Notes: generated by a model not told the origin, from the letters alone. 32,000 nucleotides of DNA from Candidatus Heimdallarchaeota archaeon (GCA_030614005.1 JAUWKS010000012.1:30001-62000); one strand, 5' to 3'. Counted from the first letter of the stretch, positions 4,604 to 23,059 are shown. Translations and numbers: made by a program.

Positions 4604-4714
4604 GGGCCGGTAGATCAGACTGGAAGATCGCCTGATTTGCAATAGATAAAAGGCTGCGGGCCAAATCTAAAAAATTTCAGGAGGCCGTGGATTCAAATTC
4701 CACCCGGTCCACCA
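4604..4714 (+). tRNA. tRNA-Ala(UGC) with a 34-nt intron (4642-4675) and encoded CCA
   Basis: Acceptor stem GGGCCGG/CCGGTCC with G3:U70; D stem GATC/GATC; anticodon stem CCTGA (4631-4635)/TCAGG (4677-4681); anticodon TGC at 4638-4640; T arm GTGGA-TTCAAAT-TCCAC; ACCA end. The intron at 37/38 folds via TAGAT/ATCTA and GGC/GCC. Confidence 0.92.
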
Positions 4715-4715
4715 C
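4684..4715 (+). repeat. tRNA-Ala 3'-end repeat, copy 1 (within the intact tRNA; att-like)
   Basis: GCCGTGGATTCAAATTCCACCCGGTCCACCAC; recurs at 21074, 24649, 27390 and 28419. Confidence 0.95.
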
Positions 4716-4829
4716 CTTCTTTTCTCTTTTCCACCTCGTTCTGTCCTTCTTTTTATTTTTATTGTGTGGTATCTGTTACCATTAAAAATTGGATTAATAG
4801 AACAAAATTATTTTTACTCATTTTAAAAC

Positions 4830-5465
4830 CTAGAGTTCGAAAAATCTCTTTAGCTTAACAGGATCAGCTCTATCTTCATCATCAATCAGTATAAACACAC
4901 CGACATTTCTTTTGATGTATTCCTTGCTCCAGTCCTCTTTTATCTTCCATCCTCCTGTTGCAAACACTCCGTTATCCATATCGTAGAAAGGAACATGGGT
5001 GTGGCTGAGGATAATTTTATCTGTCTGAAGAATCTTTGGAAGAAAGTCTATGCTGTTAGTTATTAACTGTTTCTTCATGTTAGTTGCCGCTTGATTCCAA
5101 GTTTCATTCACTCGTTTCTTAAGACCAATGTTATGTCCATGGCAGATGATAAACCGACCTTCTAGAGTATTTAGTTTCACATAGGGAACTACTTGGATGT
5201 CCGGTCTATCGAATAGCAAGTTTCCTTCGTGTCCCATCCCACCTGTTACAAAGACTAACTTTTCCTTAAATCCCTTCTCAATACTCCAGTCAACAAAAGA
5301 GTCTAATGCCTCCTTTCCTGTTTCATCGAAATTATCTAAGAAATCACCGTTCATAATAATTATATCTACTTTCTTTGACGCGCTTTCTAGCGCTTCTTTG
5401 AATTCATCCTCTAAACATCCTTCTGCACCTAGATGTACATCACCAACCACTATTGCAAGAGTCAC
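4830..5465 (-). CDS. Calcineurin-like metallophosphoesterase
   Basis: GDVH, NGDFLD, GGMGHE (in place of GNH[DE]), CHGH and SHTH motifs. The GTG start overlaps the helicase TGA stop (GTGA). Confidence 0.85.
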   Translation of the reverse strand: MTLAIVVGDVHLGAEGCLEDEFKEALESASKKVDIIIMNGDFLDNFDETGKEALDSFVDWSIEKGFKEKLVFVTGGMGHEGNLLFDRPDIQVVPYVKLNTLEGRFIICHGHNIGLKKRVNETWNQAATNMKKQLITNSIDFLPKILQTDKIILSHTHVPFYDMDNGVFATGGWKIKEDWSKEYIKRNVGVFILIDDEDRADPVKLKRFFEL

Positions 5466-7777
5466 CCCGCTAGATCCTCCTTTGTCTTTTGTACTAAAAA
5501 TGAGTTGACTATTCCAATAGAATCTTCTGATACATTAGCAAATAAAGGTAAGATTGACTCTTGAGTTTGCTTATTTATTAGAGCTTCATTAACTAGTTTC
5601 CTCATTTGTTCTGCTACTTTTTGGAATTCTCTAAAAAGAAATGCCGCATTGCCTAACTCTCCACCTCTATCATAAATAACTATTTTATTCTCGTGTACGT
5701 TCACCACTGTTCTAAAAGAGGGCTCTGAAATATGCAATGCTATTTCTGTACTCTTTAGAATAAGGTCTTTCAATAAACTTAGTGCTTCTCTTTTCTTTTT
5801 ATTGCTTGACTTCTTAGCTGAAAAAGTCACCTCTACTAAGAAACCACTAGTTTTCTCTTGCGAGTGGAAAACCTGCTCGTCTTGATGATTATCATCTATT
5901 TTGTTACCTGTTTTCGTGTACCTCACAACTTCAGCAGTTTCTCTTTGAATGACCATTTTGCCAAATCGAATATTTAGTTCAGCAAATCTAAACACTCGTG
6001 CCTGTTTGTCAATTTGGATAGAAGGAGCCTTTAGTTTGTTTTGTTCAATTGATGATTTATTAATTTGAAGCTTTTCTACAACAATCTTCCTCTCTAGCGA
6101 TTTTTCAACTCGGTAGATATCTCCCTGTCTTCCTAGGTAAAGGAGGTTACCCTCTAAAGCCGTTCGTAATATTCTTTGCTCCTCAATTTCACCAATTATC
6201 CGTTCAAAATTATTATCAAGACTTCTCTCAACTAGTAACCTTCTTTGCCCTGCAGATCGAATTTTGTGGTTTCGTATGAACTGTAATAGCTCTTGTTCAT
6301 CAGCTATAATTAATTCACGTCTATCAGCAGAAACTTTGTGATTTATAGTTCGAAGAATGCCGTCTGCTATTAGCATAACGATTGCTGTCTGAGTTATTTG
6401 CTTGCTTTCCAATGTTTTGCTGAAAGCAAGAATTTCTTCAATTGTTGTTATCCCCATATATATTCTGAATAACACAAAAGCTTTCATTCTTTGTAAGGAC
6501 TGTGAGTTAAACAATATTTGTTCAGCAGTGTTCTCTTCAAGAATGGTCTTTATTATTCGATAATTTTCCAAATAATACTTATCCAATACTCGTTCTGTGT
6601 CTAATATTAGTGTAAAATTCTTTTTCTGAGAAATATCTTGAAATCGCAATCTTCCCATTCTTTGTATTAGCCCATTCTTACCTGTTATCGGCCAGCCTAT
6701 ATTGATAATATGTTGAATTTTTGGTATATCTATTCCTAACTCAAGCAATGATGTAGTGAATAGAAATCGAAGTGATCCATCCATTATTCTCTTTATAATA
6801 TCTGCTTTATCAGATTCTGTTAGTTGACTATTGATACACATAAATGGTGAGTTTTGTTTTACTATCTCTAATGGTAAATCTGTTTTTATCATCAATTGTT
6901 CATTAAATTTCGCCACTAACTGACTGACTTTTTGCACACTATCAATGAATACTAAACATATTCCCCCTATCCTTTGAAGATGTGGGTCGATTCGCTCAAG
7001 TATGAATTGTTCTAGTGAATCCTTAGGAAGGATCATCACTCGAATCACTCCCCTTTTGCCTACAGCTTTTACAATCTTTGCGCTTGGCAAGAAATTATCT
7101 CGAAATGAAGCAACATCCTTTACTGTAGCTGAAGCAAGAATTACTCTTAACTTTGGATTCGTTTGTTTAAAGGCTGCAATAAACTCTCGAACATGAGTTA
7201 AATATCCTCCCGAACCTGCATGTATTTCGTCAAATACCATTATATCAGTTTGTTTAATCCAGTCGAGAAAACCATATTTATCTTCCTTGAAACGTCTGTA
7301 GAACAATTTATCTAAAGTTGCCAAGATGATCTGTGGTTTCTTCTTCTCAATTTGTTCCAAGTCTTGTTTTGATAGGTCGCCATTGTATCTGCTATAGGTG
7401 ATCTTTTTCCCTGTTGCTTCGAGAATATGATTGCAATAGCGAGTTAATCTTTGTTCCTGGTCAGCAGCAAGCTGCTTGGTTGGATAGATAATGATTGCAT
7501 TAGAAATCTTCTCATCTATTAATTCTTTAAGTATTGTAAATAGAAACACTTCTGTTTTTCCAGCACCAGTCCCTACTGTGAGAAAAAGGTCATCACCAGC
7601 AAGAATTTTCTTCATAGCTTCAATCTGGTATTTGTAAAGAGTGTAGGGAAACGCTTGTTTCAATGCTTTACCAAGCTTCACCATACCTACTTCAGGATCA
7701 TCAATATAATGATTAGTTTTCTCACTCTCTTGTGGTTGGATATTAAAGGTTGCTTTAACGATGCAGTGGTTTGGCAA
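5462..7777 (-). CDS. SF2 DEAD/DEAH-box helicase, Lhr/Hrq1(SftH)-like
   Basis: Q motif LYKYQ, Walker A GTGAGKT, YPTKQLAADQ, DEIH, SAT, TSLLELGIDI and QRMGR. No C-terminal Cys cluster of the DUF1998 type is seen. Confidence 0.9.
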   Translation of the reverse strand: MPNHCIVKATFNIQPQESEKTNHYIDDPEVGMVKLGKALKQAFPYTLYKYQIEAMKKILAGDDLFLTVGTGAGKTEVFLFTILKELIDEKISNAIIIYPTKQLAADQEQRLTRYCNHILEATGKKITYSRYNGDLSKQDLEQIEKKKPQIILATLDKLFYRRFKEDKYGFLDWIKQTDIMVFDEIHAGSGGYLTHVREFIAAFKQTNPKLRVILASATVKDVASFRDNFLPSAKIVKAVGKRGVIRVMILPKDSLEQFILERIDPHLQRIGGICLVFIDSVQKVSQLVAKFNEQLMIKTDLPLEIVKQNSPFMCINSQLTESDKADIIKRIMDGSLRFLFTTSLLELGIDIPKIQHIINIGWPITGKNGLIQRMGRLRFQDISQKKNFTLILDTERVLDKYYLENYRIIKTILEENTAEQILFNSQSLQRMKAFVLFRIYMGITTIEEILAFSKTLESKQITQTAIVMLIADGILRTINHKVSADRRELIIADEQELLQFIRNHKIRSAGQRRLLVERSLDNNFERIIGEIEEQRILRTALEGNLLYLGRQGDIYRVEKSLERKIVVEKLQINKSSIEQNKLKAPSIQIDKQARVFRFAELNIRFGKMVIQRETAEVVRYTKTGNKIDDNHQDEQVFHSQEKTSGFLVEVTFSAKKSSNKKKREALSLLKDLILKSTEIALHISEPSFRTVVNVHENKIVIYDRGGELGNAAFLFREFQKVAEQMRKLVNEALINKQTQESILPLFANVSEDSIGIVNSFLVQKTKEDLAG

Positions 7778-7779
7778 GT

Positions 7780-8298
7780 CTAATTCTCTCCTTGGATTTT
7801 AGCAGCGTATAAAATTGAAAATATTGAACTAAATTCATCCTTTAAAAAATCATTTATTTCTTCATCGGTTGTATATTCTTCTCCTTTCGAATAAAATTGG
7901 ATTATTCCAGAAATGCATTTTGTTATCGCTTCTTTTCTTCCCTCTCGAGATAAGAATCTGATATTTGATGAAAAATTTTGAATTATTATTTCTTCTTCAC
8001 GTTCTTTTAGAGCGATTTCTTTATTCAATTTTGTTCTATTATATAATTCAGCATGTGCTTGTGGACTAATTTGTAAATGTGGAGGTAATGCTTGCCCTAA
8101 TGCGAGACTGTTATAGAGTTGAACCAAATTATCTAATTGGGAACCTTCTTTCAATCCAAAACGATATTTGTACTTTTGTCCAATACGCCATATTAGACCT
8201 TTTTTCTTCAACTCCTGAAGAGTTAGATACGTTTCTGTAAGAGCTATACCTGCTCCATCAGCTATTACTTTGGCTTTTTTTTGGATAGGCAATTCCAT
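7780..8298 (-). CDS. Hypothetical protein with a probable N-terminal winged HTH
   Basis: AKVIADGAGIALTETYLTLQELKKKGLIWRIG follows the TrmB/wHTH pattern. Confidence 0.5.
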   Translation of the reverse strand: MELPIQKKAKVIADGAGIALTETYLTLQELKKKGLIWRIGQKYKYRFGLKEGSQLDNLVQLYNSLALGQALPPHLQISPQAHAELYNRTKLNKEIALKEREEEIIIQNFSSNIRFLSREGRKEAITKCISGIIQFYSKGEEYTTDEEINDFLKDEFSSIFSILYAAKIQGEN

Positions 8299-8334
8299 AT
8301 TTTATGAAATCACCTAACAAATACCATATCACTT

Positions 8335-9831
8335 TTATCGTATCCATTCTATTTCAAGCTCCTCAAATCGATTGCAATATTCAATTACTCTAGGAGAAAA
8401 TTTATTCGGTTGCAGGTTATTTTCTTCCAGAAAATCCTTCTCTCGGTCTTCAAAAAGGAGAGACGAAGATTTAGAACAAGTAAGGTTTTGTTCTACTTTC
8501 TTAGCAATTCGCTTATTTGGGTAATACACTAACGGTTTAAAATTCGCTTTTTTGATCTCCTCTTGACAGATCCTAAAGGCTATGTCCTTCATTTGTTCCC
8601 TTTCTTCTATGTCTAATGAAATCCATTGAGCAGATAATCGCCAGAATTTCACAGGTATCTCTCTTTCACAATCTATTATCTTTACCATTAATTGCTTTTC
8701 AAGAAATTTCTGATGAATAGCTGAGAGTAAATTATCAAATTCAACAATAAATTGCTTACAAGCTTCTCTGAAGGTTCGATAGGTTTTTCCATTGAAGTAA
8801 CATGGTTCACTAAATAATTGTTGTTTGAGCTTGTAAAGCATCTCTTCTCCTCTTTTGTTAACAACATAGACAATCTCCCCTTTAAATACATCAAGTTTAT
8901 CAACTAATGAATTAGTTATTCTTTTGTCAAGAATAGCATGTACTAGCTTTATGTGTCCTGCGAACTTTAACGCTTCACACAAATCAAGCACCAGTCCCAT
9001 CCATGATAGATCAGAGTAATAACTGAAATGACTAAATCCCCCAACACCTAGATACTTTAAATCTAATTCATCAAGTATATTCCACAATTCCTCCTCACAG
9101 AGAATGAACATATAATTAAACAGAACATCTCCTTTTGTACATGCCATTGTTTTGTAATTGCCTGTTGTTCTTTTATGTAGATATAATCGATTGGACACTC
9201 GATTGCTGATAGCAAAATCAAAAGTGCTTATTAGTTCATTAGTTACCATCCAAGTAATATCTGCTGCTGATGCTTCTGAAAGATTACAGAGAACACTTGT
9301 ATTACAATTATATCCATAAAGATAGGCATCACATATTGCATCAACAAAAAGCTGCCACTTTTGTTTTTCTGAAGAGAACCCTCGCAATGTTTGAACCAAG
9401 GCTAATCGATTAGATAGATTCGACCGCCAAAAGACATTGTTTAATCCAAAAGAAAATCGCATTACATCTACCGTAAGAGCTCTTTGACAGTCCATTCGCT
9501 CAACTTTAAACCATCCTTGAGGAGAAGAAATGCGAACATAATGGCACCCTGCAGAAACTAATTGTTGTTTTATCTCCTCAGAAATTCCCTGATAGTCATA
9601 TACGAATTGTATTACTGACAAATTATATTGAAGCTTGTCTACATGAAGATTATAATCTTTAATAATCACTTGTTGTCCAGGCAGTATTTGAAAACCTAAG
9701 CTCACTTTATTCTTTTTCCGGGCTTCATCAAGCGTTAATCCAGTAAGTTTATACACTTCTTCATTGAAGATATGTTGATTATCCTTAACACATAATATAT
9801 ACTGTTGATCATCCTTTCTACTTTTACTCAA
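8335..9831 (-). CDS. Highly diverged Cas1-like endonuclease/integrase with a C-terminal extension
   Basis: Cas1 motifs in the expected order: N-terminal beta domain (LSVIQFVY..ISEEIKQQLVSAGCHYVRISSPQGW), SEASAADITW, DVLFNYMFIL...GFSH...GLVLDLCE, and VNKRGEEMLY...GKTYRTFR. Recognised by eye only. Confidence 0.68.
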   Translation of the reverse strand: MSKSRKDDQQYILCVKDNQHIFNEEVYKLTGLTLDEARKKNKVSLGFQILPGQQVIIKDYNLHVDKLQYNLSVIQFVYDYQGISEEIKQQLVSAGCHYVRISSPQGWFKVERMDCQRALTVDVMRFSFGLNNVFWRSNLSNRLALVQTLRGFSSEKQKWQLFVDAICDAYLYGYNCNTSVLCNLSEASAADITWMVTNELISTFDFAISNRVSNRLYLHKRTTGNYKTMACTKGDVLFNYMFILCEEELWNILDELDLKYLGVGGFSHFSYYSDLSWMGLVLDLCEALKFAGHIKLVHAILDKRITNSLVDKLDVFKGEIVYVVNKRGEEMLYKLKQQLFSEPCYFNGKTYRTFREACKQFIVEFDNLLSAIHQKFLEKQLMVKIIDCEREIPVKFWRLSAQWISLDIEEREQMKDIAFRICQEEIKKANFKPLVYYPNKRIAKKVEQNLTCSKSSSLLFEDREKDFLEENNLQPNKFSPRVIEYCNRFEELEIEWIR

Positions 9832-9832
9832 T

Positions 9833-11875
9833 TCAATTCCTCCTCATTTTCTTTCTCTTTTGAATCAATTTGAATGTAGTATTACACATTGAACAGCTAA
9901 CAGGTTTCAATCCCTGAGCTGGTCTATCATCTGTGCCAAAATCTTCAATTACAATTTCTCTCCCCTCCACTAAACAAGTAGAACATAAATAAGCATATAT
10001 CTCTTTTTTATCTGCTGAATATCCCACAAAACTTCTGGTAATTGCATCATAGAATTCTTCAACAGTATAAATTATAGTTACCTTTTCTTTTCTTATAAAA
10101 TGCTTGCAACCAACAGTTGTACTTCTGAGTGTTTTGGTAGCTCGAATATGGTTCTCACTTGAAACTTTTCGTTCAGCTATATTTATTGCTCTTCGCCAGA
10201 ACATACAACGTCTTTTTTCAAACCAATGACAATCCCCACAAACGACTTTGAAATGTGCCGGGAAATCTTTACTTGTATAATAATCAAGACTTCTCCCCAA
10301 GGGTGGTTTGGCTGTTAGCGTCTTCACAGGATACCCACTTTTAGATAGACTTTGGATTGCTTGCTTTGCTTCAAAAGGATTAATGGTAAGCATTGAGCAA
10401 ATTTTGTTTTGAGTAATAGGAGACTCAGTATTTGCCAGCAGTTCTTTTAGTGCTCGTTCAATTGTTTGTCTATCCATTTTCTTATTTATTGGTGATTCCT
10501 CAACATCATAGGATTTTTGCAAAACTCTATTCAAGAGCTTTAGACTTTCTCTTGAATCTTGAGTCATCTGATCTCTAAAGCAATTTAACATCTGGGTAAT
10601 TTGGAAAAGTACATAACTATTATTAGAAGCTGCTAGAATACTAGCAATGGTTTCCTCTTCATCTTTGAGAATATCTAACCTACCGATTAAAAATTGCAAA
10701 TCATCAAATTGTAATTTCCCTCGTGTAAAATCGCTAAATATTTCCTGTACTAGTTCCCATGTAATGATGTCATTCTCAGTTTTTTTTCGGATAGTTCTCA
10801 AAAACATCATAGGATCGTTTAGCATCTCTTCAAAGTAGGTTGAAGCAATAATGTATTGTCTTCCAAATGTAGTCAAAGTGAAACGACTATAACTACTTTG
10901 ATCTTTCTTTACTAAAGCAAATGCTCCTAGATGTCTTTCTTGCAAACTCTCAAATAGGGATATATTTTGGAAGTATTTCGTATGGAAAATTAATTCAGTA
11001 AGGTGCTGTCTCATTTCATCATCTGTTTTCTTTTTCTTTGCTTGATATATTCGAAAGTACGTTGCTTTCTGTAATCGTTCAATGAGTTGTTTTTTCGAAG
11101 GGGATCCTGAATATAAACAAAACAGAATAATACTCAAGAAAGCATCTTGTAATGCGTCCTCGTTTAATTCTTGATATATAGCTCTCACAGCCTCATTTGT
11201 TGAGATCATTATGTTATTAAATCCTCTTTCAATTTCTTCGGCAGGAATCAATCCGGTAGAAATAAAATGCTTTCGTACATGTGTTCTCTCTCGTTGAGGT
11301 AGAAGCAAAAGGATTGGGTCAATGTTATCAGAAATCCAAGACTTGCGAGCTCTATTAAGCGACTTATTCTCATCAAATGGATCAATGAAAATATACGCAT
11401 TGACGATTGGCAGCTGGACTTTTGCTTTCAAAGCATCGTCTCGACTCTTTCGATATAACAGATTTCGAGTCAACGTGTTATAACTTGTTATGATTAGCTT
11501 ATTCGCTGCTAGAGGGTGACTGTTTCCTTTAAATTTTGAAAACGTAGAAGCAATCTTCATCCCTGCAAGAGTTTTTTTGGAGGTCTCTGCAGTAACTTGA
11601 TCCTCATCGTAATTAGCATAATTATAGATTTTCTTGGCTTGTTCAGAGGTTCGAACAATAATCATTGCTGTTTGGTCGGATAATCTAGCTGAAAGTAAAG
11701 CTATAGTGGTAGCTAATTGTAACTGGTCTTCAGGGAGAATTTCATAAAAAAATATGTCTGTTTCACATAGAACCGTTTTTCGAATAATGCTTAAGTTATC
11801 AACACAAGTAAATGGATAATCTCGAAAGATAGTGGTTATGCTAATGGGTAATTGTGTTCTATAAGTTGTTATCAT
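9833..11875 (-). CDS. Hypothetical protein: degenerate Ski2/Hel308-like helicase segment, winged helices and Cys-rich C-terminus
   Basis: MIIVRTSEQAKKIY, LIITSYNTL and YIFIDPFD resemble decayed motifs Ia, Ib and II. ATYFRIY...FTLTTFGRQYIIASTY resembles the Hel308 winged helix. The C-terminus has CGDC..C..C plus CSTC/CSMC. No Walker A. Confidence 0.45.
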   Translation of the reverse strand: MITTYRTQLPISITTIFRDYPFTCVDNLSIIRKTVLCETDIFFYEILPEDQLQLATTIALLSARLSDQTAMIIVRTSEQAKKIYNYANYDEDQVTAETSKKTLAGMKIASTFSKFKGNSHPLAANKLIITSYNTLTRNLLYRKSRDDALKAKVQLPIVNAYIFIDPFDENKSLNRARKSWISDNIDPILLLLPQRERTHVRKHFISTGLIPAEEIERGFNNIMISTNEAVRAIYQELNEDALQDAFLSIILFCLYSGSPSKKQLIERLQKATYFRIYQAKKKKTDDEMRQHLTELIFHTKYFQNISLFESLQERHLGAFALVKKDQSSYSRFTLTTFGRQYIIASTYFEEMLNDPMMFLRTIRKKTENDIITWELVQEIFSDFTRGKLQFDDLQFLIGRLDILKDEEETIASILAASNNSYVLFQITQMLNCFRDQMTQDSRESLKLLNRVLQKSYDVEESPINKKMDRQTIERALKELLANTESPITQNKICSMLTINPFEAKQAIQSLSKSGYPVKTLTAKPPLGRSLDYYTSKDFPAHFKVVCGDCHWFEKRRCMFWRRAINIAERKVSSENHIRATKTLRSTTVGCKHFIRKEKVTIIYTVEEFYDAITRSFVGYSADKKEIYAYLCSTCLVEGREIVIEDFGTDDRPAQGLKPVSCSMCNTTFKLIQKRKKMRRN

Positions 11876-11881
11876 CCTACT

Positions 11882-12520
11882 TCACTCCTGGTTTAGCAAT
11901 AGCTCTTCTAGGTGTTCGGGCAGAGAAAGCAACTCCTCGCCAACAAACCGATCGATGTACTCCGCCATTTCTATCTCGAGTGATTCAGGAGAGCTCTCAT
12001 CAATAATCGAAACTGGGAACTTGTCCAGAAATTCCTCACTCAATTCTTTCACTGTTTCTTGTTTGTTTGTCACTCTTTCAATAATAGTTTCTAAGTGCTT
12101 CTTGCTAGTTTTAAGTTGCAGTAAAAATGAATCATCAGGTTCTTCTGCGAGTTGACTTTGGATTTGCATTTTTATATTGAATTCTGGTTGACTGATTATC
12201 AAAATAAATTGGAGAAGGTTATTATTTATCTCAAAAAGCAATGGTTGAGTGTCTGATCGTGGTAGTTTTTCAATTATCAACCATTCAGTTAGTTTCTTGA
12301 CTTTCTGTTTGAATGTCATCAAGCTCATTTTCTCTAGCACTTGATTGTACAATGACAGTACGGATGGGTACGTCACTTGACCGAATTTTATTAAATTATT
12401 TACTAGCAACTCACAGATAACTAGCAAATTAGCAGTGATTTTAATGTCTGGATTATCCAATTCCACTGAATTCGCTGGAACTGATTGTTGAAAAGCACTA
12501 GTGTGAGTCATTTCCGTCAA
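11882..12520 (-). CDS. Hypothetical protein with an acidic C-terminus; first gene of the operon
   Basis: 212-aa ORF (TTG start; ATG at 12511 is an alternative) ending 6 bp before the next gene. No motif recognised. Confidence 0.7.
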   Translation of the reverse strand: MTEMTHTSAFQQSVPANSVELDNPDIKITANLLVICELLVNNLIKFGQVTYPSVLSLYNQVLEKMSLMTFKQKVKKLTEWLIIEKLPRSDTQPLLFEINNNLLQFILIISQPEFNIKMQIQSQLAEEPDDSFLLQLKTSKKHLETIIERVTNKQETVKELSEEFLDKFPVSIIDESSPESLEIEMAEYIDRFVGEELLSLPEHLEELLLNQE

Positions 12521-12575
12521 TAATTTAAAGGAAAATTATGTTTTTAAAGTACTAAAAGTATAAAAAAACGAAAAG

Positions 12576-12596
12576 GTTCGAAAGAAGAGTTCGAAA
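12576..12596. promoter_or_regulatory. Tandem GTTCGAAA sites (palindromic TTCGAA core) upstream of the Cas1-like operon; possible operator
   Basis: GTTCGAAA at 12576-12583 and 12589-12596, next to an AT-rich TATA-like stretch upstream of 12520. Confidence 0.3.
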
Positions 12597-12745
12597 AGAA
12601 GGCAGGATAAGGCTTCTTTTAACTCTACGGAAGATTACTTTATGTCCCTTTAGAATTATATGTAATCCCATTTTTTCCTTTTTTTCTGTATTTTTGCCCT
12701 TTCTTTGAGAAATTTTCTCTTTGATTTCTCTAAATTTCTCGTGTC

Positions 12746-12839
12746 GGAACGACGACCGTTAAAAAAGACCACCGAAGTGTGGGCTTTTAGGTCGCACGAG
12801 GGGAGCGTTCAGCGACAGTTTTTTGGTCAAGGACATTCC
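12746..12839 (-). ncRNA. Candidate structured RNA or cis-regulatory element
   Basis: GC-rich patch with nested helices on the minus strand: GGAAUG/CGUUCC, GACC/GGUC, A6/U6, GUCGC/GCGAC and a C(UUCG)G tetraloop. Confidence 0.45.
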
Positions 12840-12909
12840 CTCTTACTTCTGAGCTGTGAATTTTTCTCAAAATTTTTTTGCTTCTTAAAATTGCAGAGTT
12901 ATTCTTAAA

Positions 12910-14556
12910 TTACTCTTTTTCCGTACATAATACAAAAAATGTTTTTACATACTGGTGTAGGACAGAATTTTGAATAGTGTTTGTTTTTACTATTTCTATT
13001 CCAAACCGATTTTTCAAATCTGTATAAAGTCTCTTACTATTATTTAGAACAATTAGATAATCCTTGCAGTATGCCAAAGATTTCAATAAGACAAGTAAGT
13101 TATCATTAGGTTTTAGATTTAATCTAGCTATAGTTTTCCTCGAACGGAAATGATAATGATCATTTTGTTCAAGAAAAAGCATTAACTGATGAGGTACGTT
13201 AGAGAATAAAGGTAGAAGCTTGAGAAGATGAGTGATAGGAAGATTTCCAGTGTATTCATAAGCAGCTAACCGACCTTTTTTTATTTCCAAAAAATCTGCT
13301 AAATCTTGCTGAGTCCAATGGTTATTTTTACGAACTTTTCGCAAATAATTAGTGCAATCCGGAATTAGAAGCATAGGGAGAAGTTCAAAATTAAAGAAAG
13401 TAGTATCATTTATGGTAATAAGAGCTTCAGGATTAATGTCTTTAACATACAAACGTTCGAATAATTTTGTTTTCCTGCTCTTTAGATATTGTAATAAATA
13501 CTCTATCTTAGTTATATGCCTTGATTTAAGATAATTACCTATTATATCTTTAGAGATTGCCATAATTTGAAGAACATAACTTTCACCATAAATTGATTTG
13601 TGATGATAAATGGAATACTTAATTTTATATTGATCCAATACTTTTCCAAAAGCTTGTACAAATTGTCTTGATGCAGATGAAAAACTAATACCTCTAATAT
13701 AAGAACCATCAGCATCCAATACTCCACTCCAGAATTCCCAGCGAAGAGTCTCATCCGACGTAAAAATAAGAGGTTCTTTCAAGGAATCATATTTTTTCCC
13801 AGTAATAGGTTGGTCTGTAAGGAAATTGGTTAACCTAACAATCCATTTGTTATTCAAATGCAACAACCAAATCTTCTTTTCACCTGATATTTTGCCTTGA
13901 ATACCAAATAATTGATTTGCTAATTTTTGCATCATAAGCATGTGGTCTTGTGAGAAATCCACCAATTCTATATTATGGTAGTTCAAGTGACCATCACCAA
14001 TGACTACTCCCAAAAAATAAGCTAAATCTTTTGAGAGTCTTGTAGGCATATGGAAGTGTTCTCCCCGAGCAGATTGGAAAGGAACATATTCTTGTGTGAG
14101 GAATTCTTGCCAAAAGTCACTTAACCGGAAAAGAGGGAAAGGCAGTCGCTGCTGGTTTTCAGTATAGTCGATGATCTTTTGTTGCCACTTCTTGATAGAA
14201 TAAGCAATAGCTGTATCTTGAAAATAATAACTGCATCGCTCAGCTAAAGCAAGTGATTGTTTTCTAATCTGTTGGGAAATCTCACAAGGTAATGTAACAT
14301 AAGGCAATCGCTGTAATAATCGTTCTCCTGACTTAAAATCGATTTTACGAATCAAAATGGAGTAAAGATTTAGGATATTAGGTTCAAGGAATATTTTTGA
14401 TTGCTTATTCAGCTCAATTAGTTTATTCGCTGTTAGCCACTGGTTTTTAGGTGTGGGCAAGTTATCAATAAGCAAAAAGTCTGTTTGCCAAGATTTAGGG
14501 ATTTCATCAAACATCTTATTGAGTACTTTGTAATTGGGAATATAAAACTCCCCCAA
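12910..14556 (-). CDS. Stand-alone double-motif LAGLIDADG endonuclease-like protein with an XRE-type HTH
   Basis: LAYFLGVVIGDGHL and FWSGVLDADGSY motifs; WTQQDLADFLEIKKGRLAAYE HTH. No intein splicing termini seen. Confidence 0.85.
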   Translation of the reverse strand: MGEFYIPNYKVLNKMFDEIPKSWQTDFLLIDNLPTPKNQWLTANKLIELNKQSKIFLEPNILNLYSILIRKIDFKSGERLLQRLPYVTLPCEISQQIRKQSLALAERCSYYFQDTAIAYSIKKWQQKIIDYTENQQRLPFPLFRLSDFWQEFLTQEYVPFQSARGEHFHMPTRLSKDLAYFLGVVIGDGHLNYHNIELVDFSQDHMLMMQKLANQLFGIQGKISGEKKIWLLHLNNKWIVRLTNFLTDQPITGKKYDSLKEPLIFTSDETLRWEFWSGVLDADGSYIRGISFSSASRQFVQAFGKVLDQYKIKYSIYHHKSIYGESYVLQIMAISKDIIGNYLKSRHITKIEYLLQYLKSRKTKLFERLYVKDINPEALITINDTTFFNFELLPMLLIPDCTNYLRKVRKNNHWTQQDLADFLEIKKGRLAAYEYTGNLPITHLLKLLPLFSNVPHQLMLFLEQNDHYHFRSRKTIARLNLKPNDNLLVLLKSLAYCKDYLIVLNNSKRLYTDLKNRFGIEIVKTNTIQNSVLHQYVKTFFVLCTEKE

Positions 14557-14559
14557 AAA

Positions 14560-15009
14560 CTACTTGAAATACTTCTCTTTTTGAATTAACCATTCAACTT
14601 TGTAGGCTGCTAAATCATTTACAGAAAAAAATTCATATCCTGCTTTCCAAAGGATTAAACCAATTATTATAGCTGATCGACCAAGAACATCAGTGATATC
14701 AATTAGTAATTCCTCTTTGGTTATATCATAATAATGTTGCAGGTAATATTCAGAGAGAAAGAGCATTTCAAGGGAATTTTGAGATGAATCCAATTGATAA
14801 AGTGCTCCTGCAAGATAAATTCGAGCTAAATCGCTTTCAGTAGAAATTAACTCATGTTTAATTTGATTAAATGTAACCTCATTAGTAAAGGTAGCAAGAG
14901 CCCAACAAGCTTTTGCTCTAACCACAACGTCGTCATTTTCAACCAGTAAAGCTATAGACTGCATGTCATTTGTACTAAATAATTCAGTAAGCAGAGCTTC
15001 TCTATTCAT
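14560..15009 (-). CDS. HEAT-repeat-like protein
   Basis: DDVVVRAKACWALATF and DLARIYLAGALYQL helical repeats. Confidence 0.55.
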   Translation of the reverse strand: MNREALLTELFSTNDMQSIALLVENDDVVVRAKACWALATFTNEVTFNQIKHELISTESDLARIYLAGALYQLDSSQNSLEMLFLSEYYLQHYYDITKEELLIDITDVLGRSAIIIGLILWKAGYEFFSVNDLAAYKVEWLIQKEKYFK

Positions 15010-15021
15010 AGTATGGAATCC

Positions 15022-17220
15022 TCATTCAATATGAATTTCAACATTATCTACCCAAGATGTTACACCAAATAAACTTTGTTGACTCTCAAGAAATGATTTA
15101 TTGACTTTCACATAAAGAATAGCTTTGTCGGCATTAAGAAGGTTTTTTCGAAACTCAAGTAAATTTGCTGCTTCTTTTATTAGGTGTGGAAGATCTGGTT
15201 CGTAAGAGATATTACTCCGATCTTTACAGCTGACTAATATCATCTTGTCATTTTGGAAGGCAATATGATCAATTTCAAATGGCTTACTGATATTTGAAAG
15301 GAAAACATTTGAAGCTACTTGATAGTCTTCTGTTATTAGCCTATCTCGTATTTCTTGCTCATAAGTTGTTCCATCTCCTCTTCGATTTTTAATATCATGA
15401 ACTTTTATTGATAATGGCAATTTTTCTTGTAGTTGTTTTTTATATTGAAGAAGAACTAGCAAGTTTGAATTCTGTGTTAATTGATACTTGAGTTCGAGTA
15501 TTCCAAAATAATCCTTCTCAACTAGAAATGAATGAATCATTTGAAATACTGTACGTCTATTTGGTTCGATAACTTTTTCAGAAATTACACCTAAATCAAC
15601 ATTCGTTTGTTGAGATTCTCTGTTAACAACATCTTTTATGTAAGAATAGAGTAATTGGAAGTCAGTTACTGAAATATTCATCAATAGGCAGTATTCAGTA
15701 ATATTGGGTGAGTTTAAAGAGGTGATTACTGACAAACATTCTAATGCTTCATTTTGCAATTCTGCCTTAGATACAACTTCGCTTGTTATAGGATGAATTT
15801 GACTTGATTTATTTTCAGTTAGTAAAGCTTGTTTTTTTGAGTATTCTAACATAGAGTCAATTATTAAATCTAGTGAATCCCTTATGTTCATAGTAGCCGA
15901 TAAACCAATGAGAAGAACCCCACAAGATAAACCATATTGTTTAGTTATTTGAAAATGAGTGTGTAAACGCAAAATATCTTGATTAATAAATAAGAATGGA
16001 AACACATACACAAATTTATTAATTTTTCTTGTTGTGTGTAATAAATCTGCTATTGCATATTCAAGCTCACTACTAAGTGTTTTATCTGATGTTTTTATCT
16101 CACACAGTAGTAGAAATTGTAAACGTTTGTTTACGGCTATTACATCAACAATTTTTCTATTACCATTGATATTTTCATCTGAATTATTGAAGTTTAATAA
16201 TACTTCAGGTAGTAGTATCAAATCTCTTGTGGTTGCAAATTGTTTTATAATATTCCTAACCAACAACTCATATGAGAAATCGCAATGGTCACCCAATGCA
16301 CTGGAATATGACTTGAGAGTTTTGAGAGAAAGGCCTCTGCACTCAAGAAGAGACATTAGTTGTAAATCTTTTTCTGCAATTTCTGTTAACTCAAAATCTG
16401 GAGATGAGAATAAAACCGTAATTGATTTTCTTTTCCCACAATAAGGAAAATAAAGACATTTCTCAGGCTTTCTTCCAGTGTGCTGTCTGATTATTCGAGT
16501 TTCAATAATCATTGTTTCTTCACCATCTTTAGAAGCAATTACTAATTCTGATTTTTTAAACCAATCTTTGATGTAATGATTCAATTGGTATGACAAGGAA
16601 ATAGATCCACCATCTGTTAATGTTCCAATTGCCTTAATAAAAAGTAAACCTTTATCTCTATAGATTGTGAATTTACGATTTCCTTTACCGCCATTGATAA
16701 TGGGTGTTAGTAAGCATACGTTCGGTAGTTGTACGGAATTTAATAGAGTTAGAGCTTTTTGATACTTCTTTGTTGGTATAAAGTATGAGTTATTTATCAT
16801 ATTAATCTGGCAAATAATTATTTCCCTATGTTGGAAATCTGATGAATTTGAAAGATGAATGTATATACCATTTTTAATTTTAGTAATTTTAATGAGAATG
16901 TTAAGGTAATGGGTTCCTGCTGAAACTGACTTGATTTGTATTTGCAATATGTTAGATCTATTTCCAATTTCAAACCATTGAGTTATTTCCTTTGGTATGT
17001 TGATTATGCTATTTTTTAATATCCGTCCCTTTAATTCTATTATTCCATTAGAATATATACTAAAACCATTTTTCTTTGATGTCATATCTTTTTGAAAGAC
17101 TAATTCCTTTTCCATTTTCATAGTTTTTGAGATATTGTTTCCTAACACCAGAGTCATAATTATCAATATAATATAAGAGTAAGGAGTTATAAGTATTTTG
17201 TGGAAATCCAAACTTTCCAA
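15022..17220 (-). CDS. Large protein with two putative PD-(D/E)xK restriction-like nuclease domains
   Basis: YELLVRNII...IVDVIAV...LCEIKTS and TYEQEIRDRL...EIDHIAF...LVSCKD. The true start may lie downstream of the TTG. Confidence 0.6.
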   Translation of the reverse strand: MESLDFHKILITPYSYIILIIMTLVLGNNISKTMKMEKELVFQKDMTSKKNGFSIYSNGIIELKGRILKNSIINIPKEITQWFEIGNRSNILQIQIKSVSAGTHYLNILIKITKIKNGIYIHLSNSSDFQHREIIICQINMINNSYFIPTKKYQKALTLLNSVQLPNVCLLTPIINGGKGNRKFTIYRDKGLLFIKAIGTLTDGGSISLSYQLNHYIKDWFKKSELVIASKDGEETMIIETRIIRQHTGRKPEKCLYFPYCGKRKSITVLFSSPDFELTEIAEKDLQLMSLLECRGLSLKTLKSYSSALGDHCDFSYELLVRNIIKQFATTRDLILLPEVLLNFNNSDENINGNRKIVDVIAVNKRLQFLLLCEIKTSDKTLSSELEYAIADLLHTTRKINKFVYVFPFLFINQDILRLHTHFQITKQYGLSCGVLLIGLSATMNIRDSLDLIIDSMLEYSKKQALLTENKSSQIHPITSEVVSKAELQNEALECLSVITSLNSPNITEYCLLMNISVTDFQLLYSYIKDVVNRESQQTNVDLGVISEKVIEPNRRTVFQMIHSFLVEKDYFGILELKYQLTQNSNLLVLLQYKKQLQEKLPLSIKVHDIKNRRGDGTTYEQEIRDRLITEDYQVASNVFLSNISKPFEIDHIAFQNDKMILVSCKDRSNISYEPDLPHLIKEAANLLEFRKNLLNADKAILYVKVNKSFLESQQSLFGVTSWVDNVEIHIE

Positions 17221-17272
17221 AATATGCTTAAATTGCGAAAAATACTTAATCTATAAGGTAAAATAAGTAACT

Positions 17273-17440
17273 ATGAAATTCATAGGTAGCGCTAAACTCT
17301 ACGGAAAAAATCAAATCACCGTCCCAAAAGAAGTAGTAGAAGAATTGAAGTTAAAACAAGGAACACAAATCATCTTCCTTCAAAACGATGAAGGTTACGT
17401 GTATATCGTAACTGAAGTTGCTTTACCATCTAAAGAATAA
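17273..17440 (+). CDS. AbrB/MazE/SpoVT family DNA-binding protein (55 aa)
   Basis: Below the ORF-track cutoff. MKFIGSAKLYGKNQITVPKEVVEELKLKQGTQIIFLQNDEGYVYIVTEVALPSKE has the QITVPKE..E.L.LK.G signature. Confidence 0.85.
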   Translation: MKFIGSAKLYGKNQITVPKEVVEELKLKQGTQIIFLQNDEGYVYIVTEVALPSKE

Positions 17441-17896
17441 GAGAGCCCTATTGATTCTTTTTTTTTAGATTCTTAGGAACAGTTCGTGTGTCAAATCGTA
17501 AACAATTATCATCAACATACTCTCCGGAATTATCCCAATGTGTCATTTTTAACATACTTTTATCAGTACTTATACACTTATCTTCAGTTAATCCTTCTCG
17601 TAATATTTGGAAACTCAAGTAAGAAAAAGGATCATAAGGAGGGAAAGGTGATAATTTAACCTTTTACAAGATGAAAAAGTATTAATTTTCATTACAAGTG
17701 AAGTTGAAATATCGTATCCAAAGGGCTAATAGAGATGAAAAGTCAAGGATTATTTGACCAGTAAACAAAATTAGTAAAGACGACTGATTTAGAATTTGAC
17801 AGATTGAAAAGTTCAACTAGTAAAGCAAACCAAAAATTGAAATATATACTAGAATAAAAAGATCTTATTCTAATGAGTATTAAGCAATGACTAGAC

Positions 17897-20815
17897 TTAA
17901 ATTTTATAATTTATACAATCATCTGAATGAAACTCTTTTTTCTTGCAGAAAAATGGTAGTCCAGGTTTTATAAGGTTTTTATTTTCTTCTTCAAAATGCT
18001 TACATGCGTTATTCAATTTAAGAAGTAGTTCTAATGGATCAAAAATTTTTTCAGTATCTTTTAATCCATAAAAATAGGCTTTTCTTACAGCGTTATCTAG
18101 TTCTTCATGTAATTTTTTTAGAATATTATCTCCGGGTAATTCTAAGGTTCTATATATTTCTCTTAATGACAAATGCTTTTCGTCTCTTAGTTTGTTCCGG
18201 GTTATTCTTAATTCTCTAGCTTTATTTGCTACATCAATACAGAGTTTAACTTTTTCATCCAAGTTATCTTGAATATCAATATCATTTATAACACCAAATT
18301 GAGGCCAGGGAAAAGTATTATAGATTGTTGTTATTGTATATCTATAATCTCCTTTCAAAGTTGAACAACGTGCTTTTATCCATTCCCAATGAAATGAACT
18401 CTGTAAAATACCAAATGAATAATCATCACCTAAAGGAAATGCTATTAGTGCATCATTTGGTCGAATATTTGATGAAACAAAATCAAATATGGATCTTTTT
18501 GCAACCCGACTACAAGCAATGTATCTTGGAATATTCTTGATTAGGTTAATTAAATCCTTTCTAGTTCTCCAAAATAACCACCATTTCTTTAAATGATTTT
18601 GACGAACGGTATCTTTTTTCTCTAGTTTTTCATATAGCTTCATTTCTTCATCAGCTTTTTGTTCAATTGTTGGGAGAACCTTTTGTTTTATTATTTTAAA
18701 TGGGGTTTTAAATTTCTGTGCATCAAATAAAGACATCGATTGAAAATCTATCACTAATCGGTCTGGTCGAGATTTTATATTACCCAGCATTGCGTTTGCT
18801 ATTAAGTAAGGAAAAATTACTTCTCTCGCTTTAGGTTCCTTTTTGAAAATATCTTTAGCTTGTTGTCGAGATAAAATAAACCCACTGTGTCCATGAGTTT
18901 GACCTTGGTAACAAGTTCTTGAATTCTTATTTGTAATTAATGCTTTTGCTGAGATGACATCTAATTTTGGTGAAAGAGAAGAAGGTATCCATTTTAGATC
19001 ATATTCCTCGAGCAAATTATTGGGGTTTTTCTCATCATAGAATAGTAATTTCTTATTCTTAGATTCATCAGTCTCTCCCTTAATCCAATTTACAATGGAT
19101 ACGTGAACTTGAGCTTCCCCACTCCAAGGCATAGTGGAAACAGCTTCTATAATAGTTCCATTATTTTCAATAATATACTCCAACCCATCTTTTTTTGAAT
19201 AAGTTTGTCTAATTGTATTTGTACCAACAAGTCCTGCTTTACCACCTTCCTTTAACTTGTTATGAGCTTTGCGAAACCAATAAACACAGTAATCTACTCT
19301 ACCATTTACATCTGGATATTGTTTTCTTAACTTCTCCACATATTCTGGTCCAAATTCTTCAATCATCTTATTTTTAGCCTGAAAAGGAGGATTACCAATG
19401 ATTATATCTGCTTCGGGCCAGTCAATAAATAGGGCATCATCAATGATGAAATTTGTATTTAGATTATCAAAAGGTAATGGACTCTCTGCATCATAATTCA
19501 ACAAACGCTGACTATTGAATTCATTAAAAGTATCTATTGCATCTTTCTTAGCGAATGATAATGTTATTTTAGCAAGTTCAATAGCAAAAGGATTAGTATC
19601 AATTCCGAAAAATTGTGTTGATTTAATTTTAGATTGTAAAGAATGTTTTTTCTTTTCAAGTGATGGATATTCAGTTATCATTTTTCGTATTAAATCAAGT
19701 TCAATATGTTTTAATTCCCTAAACGCTACAGAGAGAAAATTACCACTTCCACAAGCAGGATCTAGAATTCTCATTTCACTTAAAGAGTTCCAAATCCTCT
19801 CCAACTCTTTTAATGATTTTGCCTCAGTTATTTTTAATCTAATCGGTCGAAGAATAGTTGGTTCTACTATTTTCATAATGTCTGATTCTCTTGTATAATG
19901 AGCACCATATTTGTGACGTTCATCTTTTCTTAGACTTGATTCAAATATATTGCCAAAAATAGCAGGTTGGATTTTAGACCAATCATGAAGAGCTACTGCG
20001 TGTAAATTTTCCAATTCACTCTTGCTTAATTCAATAGGTTGAATGATTTTAAAAATATCACCATCAAAATATGAAACTTCTTTAAATCTACCTCCTGTTT
20101 CTTTTTTTGTTGAATTCATCTTAGTAAAAAGTAATTTAAAAAGATCGTAGCTATTAGCTCCATTTATACAATCTTGAATTAATTCTGTGAAAAAACCTCG
20201 AACTGGAAATAAACCAGTATCTTCAGCAAAAAAACAAACTAAACATTGGAGTGTAAACCTTTGAGCTTTTTCATAATTAACACCTCTCTTTATTAAACTC
20301 AAATATAATTTTGCTATTTTTTGTGCTGCTACTTCTGTAACAGCAACTCTATCATTATTGAATATCGGTTTTATATCTCTTCCATGGTAAAGAAATGATA
20401 AAGCTCTCCATCTTTTCGCTAAATTATCTATATGTATTATATCAACTGGATCGGGTTGTTTGTTCCAATCAAATATCCAAAATTCATCAAAATTACACAA
20501 AATGACATAAGAAGGTCGCAATTTATAGATGTTTATCCAGTAGAATTTAGCTTGACTTATATGTTTGTTTAAATCTTCACCTCTTGATTTCATTTCTATC
20601 AATACTCTTTCAGGCCAAAATAAGTCTGCATAATAGGTTTTATTTTCGATTTTTATAGAGGCTTCAAAAGAAGCACCACACTCAAAAACCCCTTCATGTC
20701 CAAATGCTTCGAATAAATGGTTCAAGAATGTTTGGGATTCCTGTTTTTCTCTACCAGATAATTTTTTTGCAAAAGATAGAAATTCTTCAAGGTTGCTTTC
20801 AATTAGCTTTGTCAT
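17897..20815 (-). CDS. MmeI-like (Type IIL/IIG) fused restriction endonuclease / N6-adenine methyltransferase
   Basis: ADLFWPERVLIEMKS nuclease, ILCNF, ILDPACGSGNFL (SAM binding), GNPPF (catalytic) and a C-terminal TRD with YNTFPWP. Confidence 0.9.
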   Translation of the reverse strand: MTKLIESNLEEFLSFAKKLSGREKQESQTFLNHLFEAFGHEGVFECGASFEASIKIENKTYYADLFWPERVLIEMKSRGEDLNKHISQAKFYWINIYKLRPSYVILCNFDEFWIFDWNKQPDPVDIIHIDNLAKRWRALSFLYHGRDIKPIFNNDRVAVTEVAAQKIAKLYLSLIKRGVNYEKAQRFTLQCLVCFFAEDTGLFPVRGFFTELIQDCINGANSYDLFKLLFTKMNSTKKETGGRFKEVSYFDGDIFKIIQPIELSKSELENLHAVALHDWSKIQPAIFGNIFESSLRKDERHKYGAHYTRESDIMKIVEPTILRPIRLKITEAKSLKELERIWNSLSEMRILDPACGSGNFLSVAFRELKHIELDLIRKMITEYPSLEKKKHSLQSKIKSTQFFGIDTNPFAIELAKITLSFAKKDAIDTFNEFNSQRLLNYDAESPLPFDNLNTNFIIDDALFIDWPEADIIIGNPPFQAKNKMIEEFGPEYVEKLRKQYPDVNGRVDYCVYWFRKAHNKLKEGGKAGLVGTNTIRQTYSKKDGLEYIIENNGTIIEAVSTMPWSGEAQVHVSIVNWIKGETDESKNKKLLFYDEKNPNNLLEEYDLKWIPSSLSPKLDVISAKALITNKNSRTCYQGQTHGHSGFILSRQQAKDIFKKEPKAREVIFPYLIANAMLGNIKSRPDRLVIDFQSMSLFDAQKFKTPFKIIKQKVLPTIEQKADEEMKLYEKLEKKDTVRQNHLKKWWLFWRTRKDLINLIKNIPRYIACSRVAKRSIFDFVSSNIRPNDALIAFPLGDDYSFGILQSSFHWEWIKARCSTLKGDYRYTITTIYNTFPWPQFGVINDIDIQDNLDEKVKLCIDVANKARELRITRNKLRDEKHLSLREIYRTLELPGDNILKKLHEELDNAVRKAYFYGLKDTEKIFDPLELLLKLNNACKHFEEENKNLIKPGLPFFCKKKEFHSDDCINYKI

Positions 20816-21073
20816 TAACTACTTCCTTCTCATTTAGATATAAATAATTGTTGTTTAGAAATTATTAAAATTTGCGATTGCACAACCGTGTTCTTAACGC
20901 TTCCCACATTCTTTTTAGATTATGTAATTAAAGTATTTCTAACTCTTTACTCTGAAACATGTGTTTTTATTTCTCTATTAGTGAAGGGGAGAAAAAATAA
21001 ATGAATTTTTTAAGGTGATTTCTTCTTTCTATAAAAAGAACACTTCTATAAAAATATGCTGCTTTTAAAGGAT

Positions 21074-21105
21074 GCCGTGGATTCAAATTCCACCCGGTCC
21101 ACCAC
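21074..21105 (+). repeat. tRNA-Ala 3'-end repeat, copy 2
   Basis: Identical to 4684-4715 over 32 bp. Confidence 0.95.
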
Positions 21106-21219
21106 TTTCTTTTCTCTTTTCAGACTCGTTCTGTCCTTCTTTTCATTTTTATTTTGTGCTATCTGTTACCATTAAAATTTAGACTAATAGGACAAAATCA
21201 TTTTTGTTCATTTTAAAAC

Positions 21220-21718: not shown

Positions 21719-21939
21719 ACAATTAGAAGAACTCAACAAATTTTTTTTCAAAACTTTATTGATTTCGTCTTGTGTTTTTAATGATAACATGTTTTATGAT
21801 TGCTTATCCGACAAAATCTAAAAGGTTATTCAGTAAGTACAATCTAACATAGGTATCAAGAATTCTTAAATATAATTACCTTGAAGTAGTACATGAACTC
21901 TTTTGATTAGGAAAAGAGCGGAGGGATTAAAATTTAAAA

Positions 21940-22854: not shown

Positions 22855-22861
22855 CAGAAAT

Positions 22862-22892
22862 AAAGGAATCTTTTGGGATTCCTTTTCTTTTA
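22862..22892 (+). terminator. Hairpin plus T-tract after the peptidase gene
   Basis: AAAGGAATC-ttttgg-GATTCCTTT followed by TCTTTT. Confidence 0.5.
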
Positions 22893-23059
22893 TTAAAAGA
22901 GAAAAAAAATAAGTGGCAAATCAAAAAACATCAATTAAAAAAGGTCTAGCACTAAAAAAAATAATAGATAGCAACAATATTCATTAGTGAATATAACGAA
23001 AATTTTGTGAAAATAACCTTTTTTAGTAAAGCACTTAATTAACATTTGGGGATTAAAAG

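Follow-up and report, generated by a model that had tools for sequence, protein, structure and literature searches.

A probable mobile element at tRNA 3′ ends in Heimdall-group Asgard archaea encodes a divergent Cas1-like protein, its candidate integrase

What is the role of a Cas1-like protein in an operon that belongs to no named defence or CRISPR system? The question is raised by six consecutive open reading frames (ORFs) on the minus strand at positions 4830-12520 of a 32,000-nt stretch of DNA from Candidatus Heimdallarchaeota archaeon (GCA_030614005.1 JAUWKS010000012.1:30001-62000). The whole stretch is called the window below, and coordinates given without a locus name are positions in it, counted from its first letter. 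A sequence-only reading of the window had described six minus-strand genes separated by 6, 1, 36 and 2 bp and joined at the last junction by a GTGA overlap, and had assigned them to a protein of unknown type, a degenerate Cys-rich helicase, a Cas1-like protein, a winged helix-turn-helix (wHTH) protein, a superfamily 2 (SF2) helicase and a metallophosphoesterase. The intervals computed from the ORF coordinates are exactly these, and the overlap, read directly, connects the stop of the helicase gene with the start of the phosphoesterase gene. The six descriptors hold by domain matches, motifs and folds, and PADLOC, NCBIfam and Pfam give the set no name. The analysis presented here indicates that the operon is very probably the conserved core of a mobile element residing at tRNA 3′ ends in Heimdall-group Asgard archaea.

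The six genes had been taken for a single unit, and the same gene order was indeed found in related loci. The conserved unit consists of seven genes, namely the six genes of the operon and a gene at 12910-14556 encoding a protein with LAGLIDADG endonuclease and helix-turn-helix (HTH) domains. The complete set of seven, in unchanged order, was found in eight other loci, which come from six assemblies or metagenome samples, with 40-93% protein identity, and five further loci located at contig ends hold five or six of the seven. Such recurrence of the gene set is far beyond chance. Comparison of the neighbourhoods of the homologues also demonstrated that the helicase-phosphoesterase pair adjoins the Cas1-like gene even at about 24% identity and in a rearranged gene order. 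The homologues thus recur together elsewhere, and the condition named in the sequence-only reading as refuting it did not arise. The six-gene unit and the recognition of a Cas1 homologue by fold stand as first proposed, and the sequence-only reading was incomplete as to the element and the role of the tRNA, the LAGLIDADG gene and the fusion of the second and third proteins of the operon in related loci.

The Cas1-like gene (8335-9831, minus strand) encodes a protein of 498 amino acids (aa), a candidate integrase, which was recognised as Cas1 by structure comparison only. No Cas1 match was obtained for it in Pfam (PF01867), NCBIfam, PADLOC, PHROGs or a PDB profile search, and its 19 close homologues all belong to Heimdallarchaeota-labelled or unlabelled metagenome contigs. 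An AlphaFold2 model based on the alignment of homologues, of medium confidence (predicted local distance difference test (pLDDT) 69, predicted template modelling score (pTM) 0.70), displays the two-domain Cas1 fold, with an N-terminal beta domain and a C-terminal alpha-helical catalytic domain. In a Foldseek search against the PDB, the top 50 matches of the model were all Cas1 proteins or casposases, the best being the casposase 6opm (E 1.5e-7), and the alignments, 343-396 columns long, also include the N-terminal strands. VIA comparison gave a Z of 18.5 with A. fulgidus Cas1 (4n06) over 244 residues at 3.2 A (model residues 112-437) and a Z of 17.8 with the M. mazei casposase 6opm. Every cluster nearest to the protein in the ESM Atlas is 100% PF01867. 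Residues E186, H268 and D283 are invariant in 19 sequences and, in an hhalign comparison with 12 canonical Asgard Cas1 proteins, fall on the EG..A, G(F)LH and LDL.E motifs. This profile match is weak alone (P 0.027), so that the assignment leans on the structure and the order of motifs. As judged from the model, the protein is a very divergent Cas1 homologue by fold, with a conserved E-H-D triad.

A six-frame search found no PF01867 Cas1 in the genome, and PADLOC gave no Cas2 match among the six operon proteins except a spurious 20-bit stretch within the helicase. The window showed neither a CRISPR array (no short-period repeat array and no Rfam CRISPR match) nor CRISPR effector genes.

The tRNA-proximal end of the element is formed by the phosphoesterase gene. 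A tRNA-Ala(TGC) gene with a 34-nt intron in the anticodon loop, the insertion target, was detected at 4604-4714 on the plus strand using ARAGORN with the intron search; default ARAGORN and Rfam overlook it. The G3:U70 pair is visible in the sequence, the 3′ end of the gene (4714) lies 115 nt from the phosphoesterase stop, and its last 35 nt (4680-4714) constitute the repeated segment. A direct repeat of this 3′ end (34/35 nt identical, plus the trailer), located at 21070-21114 on the plus strand, marks the far boundary of the element, designated element 1, which spans approximately 4715-21069; related copies are about 13.7-14.5 kb long, and the elements as a whole range over 13-16 kb. From the tRNA onwards, the layout comprises the phosphoesterase, the DExH helicase, the wHTH protein, the Cas1-like protein, an inactivated helicase with zinc clusters, a 212-aa protein, the LAGLIDADG/HTH protein, accessory and cargo genes, and the tRNA repeat. 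The orthologous tRNA-Ala has no intron in locus L045 and genomes G080 and G088, and a 31-nt intron in G081.

The same arrangement was observed elsewhere. In 7 of the 11 readable loci, the phosphoesterase stop lies about 8-115 nt from a tRNA 3′ end, which faces the phosphoesterase gene. The tRNA is tRNA-Ala(TGC) in the window, G081 and L045, tRNA-Pro(TGG) in L001, and tRNA-Lys(CTT) in L027, L030 and L047. Besides the window, where it begins at 21070, a distal repeat was located 14.2 kb away in L001, 14.1 kb away in L027, 14.5 kb away in L045 and, in a degenerate form, 13.7 kb away in G081; in all five cases it represents the last 30-35 nt of the tRNA. No distal repeat was found in L047 within 14.8 kb of sequence.

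Genomes of the same genus made it possible to examine the site in the empty state. In G080, G083, G086 and G088, at most about 36 bp separate the orthologous tRNA-Ala from the gene that in the window comes after the entire array, and in G080 and G088 the repeat was read as a single copy. All four represent empty tRNA-Ala sites. In G081, the same tRNA-Ala is occupied by an element whose Cas1-like protein is 43% identical to that of the window. The elements of the window and L045 are 87% identical over 10.7 kb, while the flanking host genes are 68-75% identical. The family was found in seven of ten other genomes of one genus, four of them possessing full-length copies and three a fragment or a distant relative, with up to three copies per genome; in the rest of a set of 399 Asgard genomes there was nothing above E 1e-8, distant relatives only. 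The element is inserted DNA that is found at several different tRNA genes and has spread between species. Among the sequencing runs listed for this DNA there is none of RNA, and the DNA runs give cold-seep metagenome contigs at about 3-4x depth. Assembly of four runs yielded only short contigs, none of which joins the element ends or bridges an empty site. Loose ends at 4716, 21067 and 21114, absent from this genome, probably come from other strains.

These comparisons bear on the alternative of an ordinary chromosomal DNA-repair operon, with an Lhr/MrfA-like helicase and a phosphoesterase, situated near tRNA genes by chance. Lhr-core/MPE and MrfAB pairings are known repair modules, and the helicase matches TIGR04121 and TIGR03817. 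However, the NCBIfam scores are far under the family cut-offs (93 vs 850 bits and, for TIGR03817, 78 bits with a cut-off of 874), and the locus is multi-copy, patchy and more conserved than its flanks. Four genomes of the genus lack it at the same site, which effectively refutes this explanation; we find it scarcely credible.

It remains to consider which protein integrates the element. No element protein matched a tyrosine or serine recombinase, a transposase or a polymerase in Pfam, PHROGs and library scans, and the only PF00589 match of the genome is located on another contig (C58). Therefore, the Cas1-like protein is the only element protein with a known integrase fold. A very divergent recombinase could lie among the proteins with no assigned fold, and the libraries show none. 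The three members of clade C of the Cas1-like proteins (63-66% identity) are all found at tRNA-Lys(CTT), and clades A and B at tRNA-Ala or tRNA-Pro, the T-arm and acceptor of which are near-identical. The clades thus track the target tRNA. This favours integration by the Cas1-like protein with recognition of a specific target sequence, similarly to family 2 casposases (PMC6977970). The best reading, which we consider probable, with reservations, is that of a polymerase-less, casposon-like element integrated by the Cas1-like protein.

Alternatively, insertion could be performed by another protein of the module, the Cas1-like protein carrying out some other DNA transaction. The first candidate is the LAGLIDADG/HTH protein (548 aa; 12910-14556, minus strand; Pfam LAGLIDADG_3), which might cut at the tRNA, with subsequent repair-mediated copying. 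Its profile matched the V-ATPase intein endonuclease 7qss (E 5.6e-9) and an HTH domain of the HipB/Xre type. It resembles intein homing endonucleases and keeps the catalytic Asp of both motifs, D188 and D283, which are invariant. The protein (about 540 aa) was found with the operon in every related locus extending far enough; in loci as divergent as L074 and L075 it is still encoded together with Cas1-like proteins, and in L075 its gene stands directly beside tRNA-Leu. A cryptic recombinase might also be hidden in the 212-aa or 172-aa protein, both with no assigned fold. The former is the first of the six operon genes (11882-12520, minus strand), is 25-47% identical between related loci, where its position is kept, and has no family match in Pfam, NCBIfam or PHROGs. 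The latter (7780-8298, minus strand) probably begins with a winged helix (a TrmB-type wHTH match with E 0.005, under the Pfam cut-off), and its gene position is kept in close relatives. Moreover, long repeats resembling attachment (att) sites and the absence of terminal inverted repeats (TIRs) fit conservative site-specific recombination. Yet LAGLIDADG homing makes no direct repeats of the target, no library revealed a recombinase signature, and Cas1 is the sole known integrase fold in the element, with its triad invariant. Insertion by another module protein is quite improbable.

Another possibility concerns the two genes nearest to the tRNA. The SF2 DExH helicase (771 aa; 5462-7777, minus strand) contains Pfam DEAD (E 2e-27) and Helicase_C (E 2e-15) domains and intact motifs I, II, III and VI (GAGKT, DEIH, SAT and QRMGR), and seems by its sequence to be active and distantly YprA/Lhr-like. 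Regarding YprA/MrfA membership, the DExH core is there, and the helicase of the window has no CxxC or Cys4 motif; its orthologues beside two distant fusion genes described below (P0023 and P0024) carry MZB/DUF1998 matches, one of them faint. The metallophosphoesterase (211 aa; 4830-5465, minus strand; Pfam Metallophos, E 1.7e-6) is encoded by the last gene of the operon, has the metal-binding motifs (GDVH, GD, GHE, CHGH and SHTH), and its homologue adjoins the helicase in every related locus extending far enough.

This pair could be the effector of a defence or DNA-surveillance system with the Cas1-like protein and the inactivated helicase as a sensor, the operon being cargo on an island whose integrase is unrecognised or acts in trans. 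The neighbourhood indeed qualifies as a defence island: besides two toxin-antitoxin pairs, it encodes an MmeI-like enzyme, a UvrD-like helicase and a NERD protein. The helicase of the operon produces generic matches to the Cas3, BrxH, DruE and DpdF models of PADLOC. YprA-like helicases are central to several defence systems (bioRxiv 10.1101/2025.09.15.676423), and no tRNA adjoins the distant relatives L031, L072 and L074. On the other hand, the module makes up about 10 of the 13-14 kb, and since no other part is conserved between the elements, no other candidate for moving them remains. At all three tRNA species it keeps one position and one orientation with respect to the tRNA, which is integrase-like rather than cargo-like behaviour. 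PADLOC matches no system, there is no recombinase in cis, and the genome has one PF00589 gene. The operon is unlikely to be defence cargo.

Several observations weigh against a casposon-like element integrated by the Cas1-like protein. The homology to Cas1 leans mainly on a model with a pLDDT of 69, the profile-profile match being weak when taken by itself. No recognisable tRNA is present at the phosphoesterase end in L002, L003, L024 and L046. Known casposases bind TIRs, and in the three elements with both ends known the end-to-end scores were equal to those of shuffled controls; a repeat search found no TIRs either, and the far ends differ between elements. A tRNA 3′ end repeated over 30-35 nt is classically the mark of tyrosine-recombinase elements. 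The element belongs to a defence-rich island, and helicase-nuclease pairs are typical defence effectors. Finally, in L027 the proximal tRNA-Lys has a 30-nt T-loop insertion missing from the distal copy, which a plain target-site duplication (TSD) would not predict. This tRNA-Lys(CTT) gene (L027:50-160) also has an imperfect acceptor stem and is not called by ARAGORN, and the distal repeat (L027:14303-14333) is an uninterrupted T arm and acceptor.

The nature of the repeat can be approached from both sides. The distal repeats of the window and L045 carry the host's own tRNA variant, which favours target duplication. The T-loop insertion of L027, absent from the distal copy, favours an attachment site borne by the element or a later change. 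The 30-35 nt repeat could be either a true TSD of CRISPR-repeat length or an element-borne attachment site.

The probable partner of the Cas1-like protein is encoded by the adjacent gene (9833-11875, minus strand). The 680-aa product contains a winged helix and two Cys4 clusters, and its model (pLDDT 66) matched the Brr2 and Hel308 helicase cassettes in Foldseek (E ~1e-5). In the alignment of 11 homologues there is no Walker A motif (GxGKT), the DExH motif II is degenerate (F(V/I)DP(F/L)), and eight Cys residues are invariant within the C-terminal 140 residues. The protein is an inactivated derivative of a Hel308/Ski2-like helicase.

An exhaustive HMMER search revealed distant Cas1-like relatives embedded in longer proteins. 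In P0023 (1215 aa), residues 99-721 are collinear with the 680-aa protein (E 1e-22) and residues 728-1200 with the Cas1-like protein, and in P0024 (998 aa) the wHTH/zinc half is joined to a Cas1-like domain; downstream of both fusion genes lie a DExH helicase and a small phosphoesterase. A fused ORF of 1324 aa with a helicase downstream was found in G082, of the same genus, and one of 1248 aa in G121, of another Asgard family, where the order is helicase, phosphoesterase, fusion. The helicase always adjoins these four fusions, as does the phosphoesterase wherever the contig extends far enough. As relatives have the 680-aa protein and the Cas1-like protein in one chain, the former is the likeliest partner of the latter. 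Because the fusions recur beside the helicase and phosphoesterase, the Cas1-like protein, the inactivated helicase, the active helicase and the phosphoesterase are a unit kept across deep divergence.

Other distant relatives have a different composition. P0027 (L032:3189-7988) and P0029, 1342-1599 aa in length, consist of a PD-(D/E)XK nuclease domain (PDDEXK_1, Cas4/AddB-type) joined to a distant Cas1-like domain (E 1.8e-5 and 3e-4); there is no helicase or phosphoesterase near the fusion gene in L032. In L075:4859-10260 (G081, contig C6), tRNA-Leu(TAG) is directly followed by a homologue of the LAGLIDADG/HTH gene and, 1.7 kb further on, by a gene for a 628-aa protein with a distant Cas1-like region; tblastn detected no helicase or phosphoesterase there.

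A possible mechanism can be outlined for the casposon-like element. The Cas1-like protein and the 680-aa zinc/wHTH protein would form the integrase and bind the T-arm and acceptor region of the tRNA, and the ends of the donor DNA, or intermediates of integration, may be trimmed or unwound by the DExH helicase and phosphoesterase, in line with the proposal of the sequence-only reading. The LAGLIDADG/HTH protein may cut or bind a specific site, possibly the flanking repeats; a cut in these repeats might free a linear element with 3′ overhangs. Cas1-type enzymes accept such overhangs. In a bolder version, the Cas1-like protein with its inactivated-helicase partner would join DNA at staggered positions about 30-35 bp from each other within the tRNA 3′ end; each insertion would thereby duplicate a segment of CRISPR-repeat size, with little need for specific donor ends. 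The outcome would be a polar, tRNA-led array of gene-sized cassettes, and five or six copies of the repeat are present in the window, the genes packed between them being intact. This staggered-join, polar-array version is speculative and seems rather a long shot.

The rest of the window is occupied by accessory genes, cargo and host genes. Genes for a 149-aa protein and a 732-aa NERD-domain protein (14560-17220, minus strand; the NERD match is weak) are frequent accessories, with homologues in L001, L020, L027 and L045 whose orientation varies. At the far end, the variable cargo slot contains an MmeI-like type IIG restriction-modification enzyme (17897-20815, minus strand; Pfam MmeI_Mtase, MmeI_N, MmeI_TRD and MmeI_hel); this slot is filled with other genes in L045, and in G081 the MmeI enzyme sits behind a separate degenerate repeat copy. 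The tRNA-Ala 3′ end is found again at 24645, 27385 and 28415, with a remnant near 29152. The cassettes between the extra repeats (21070-29170) have no mobility gene and encode a 304-aa protein with an SBBP beta-propeller repeat protein, a UvrD-like helicase, a DUF5615/DUF433 pair and VapBC. In G081, the MmeI and SBBP cassettes recur at 91-93% identity, and in L045 only the VapBC end does. The second cassette (21069-21690) opens with a 75-89% identical copy of the left end of element 1, including a truncated phosphoesterase ORF (21220-21690), and its start is a remnant of a sibling element. TnpB (OrfB_IS605/Cas12f-like) genes adjoin the LAGLIDADG end of three elements (L002:3343-4509, L003:183-1376 and L046:1658-3286), and another one (L032:643-2496) adjoins the distant Cas1-like fusion gene of that locus. 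The host flank genes at 29244-30527 and 791-2161, encoding an Arf/Rag-like small GTPase (427 aa, a eukaryote-like signature protein) and a 456-aa protein, are unrelated to the element.

Two settings are known for Cas1: CRISPR adaptation and casposons, the transposons from which Cas1 is believed to derive. The family described here would be a third branch of Cas1, invisible to sequence searches, and would imply that the diversity of Cas1-type integrases, and the difficulty of detecting them, have been underestimated. If it is indeed carried by a polymerase-less, tRNA-targeting element flanked by repeats of CRISPR-repeat length, this branch bears on the origin of CRISPR adaptation and offers a concrete system for studying how two Cas1 integration events, once spaced 14 bp apart, came to be separated by about 30 bp. 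The set of partners, i.e., the inactivated helicase with zinc clusters, the DExH helicase, the phosphoesterase and the LAGLIDADG nuclease, is new for a Cas1 enzyme and suggests an unexplored route of donor-DNA excision and processing. Defence genes travel on these elements from one Heimdall-group Asgard genome to another, and the core genes of the elements appear in pipeline annotations as hypothetical proteins. Should the staggered-join version hold, the element would be a living intermediate between casposon transposition, with its TIR-dependent 14-15 bp duplication, and end-agnostic CRISPR spacer acquisition with repeat duplication, in the archaeal lineage closest to eukaryotes.

Full-text literature searches found no description of this family of Cas1-like elements. 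Aloposons (PMC8813620) were considered and rejected; they are defined by genes for proteins of 3,000-6,000 aa and a ParA-like ATPase, both missing here, and the elements described in the paper on the Heimdallarchaeum mobilome are these aloposons, different from the present family. The survey of YprA proteins (bioRxiv 10.1101/2025.09.15.676423) mentions no association with Cas1 or a phosphoesterase. In common with the MrfA/YprA-MrfB and Lhr-core-MPE pairs, the element shows translational coupling of a DExH SF2 helicase with a small metal-dependent nuclease or phosphoesterase, and distant orthologues of the helicase carry MZB/DUF1998. Unlike them, its helicase scores far under the thresholds and, in the window, has no Cys4, and the pair is always tied to a Cas1-like gene on a mobile element. 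With the tyrosine-recombinase elements of tRNA genes it shares the tRNA 3′-end repeats at both borders, a conserved module by one attachment site with variable, often defence, cargo at the other, and tandem arrays, whereas no copy examined has a tyrosine or serine recombinase gene.

The closest parallel among mobile elements is provided by family 2 casposons (Aciduliprofundum boonei, Methanosarcina mazei), likewise archaeal mobile elements with a Cas1-fold candidate integrase, 6opm being among the best matches. The casposons of M. mazei have a tRNA-Leu target, a 14-bp TSD and a 31-bp TIR (PMC6977970). Insertion at a tRNA 3′ end, direct target repeats on both sides and tandem arrays at one tRNA are common to both, the tRNA 3′-end preference being seen in the seven loci mentioned above. 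In contrast to family 2 casposons, the element has no HNH nuclease or TIRs and, with no polymerase match in any ORF of this or related elements, no PolB, and so is not self-synthesising. Its repeat is 30-35 nt long and lies inside the tRNA, while the casposon TSD is 14-15 bp long and mostly downstream, and its Cas1-like protein is not detectable by PF01867. To our knowledge, an inactivated helicase with zinc clusters, a DExH helicase, a phosphoesterase and a LAGLIDADG/HTH protein have not been described in casposons.

Compared with the CRISPR adaptation module (Cas1-Cas2, with Cas4 or Cas3 in some types), the element differs in that the window yielded no Cas2, CRISPR array or effector genes and the genome no PF01867 Cas1, and its inserted units are gene cassettes of 1-16 kb instead of spacers of 30-40 bp. 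It shares with this module the Cas1 fold, the E-H-D triad and a duplicated segment of about 30-35 nt, as well as, apparently, the entry of new units next to a fixed "leader", here the tRNA, a polar array, a helicase and nuclease alongside and, in some relatives, a PD-(D/E)XK fusion.

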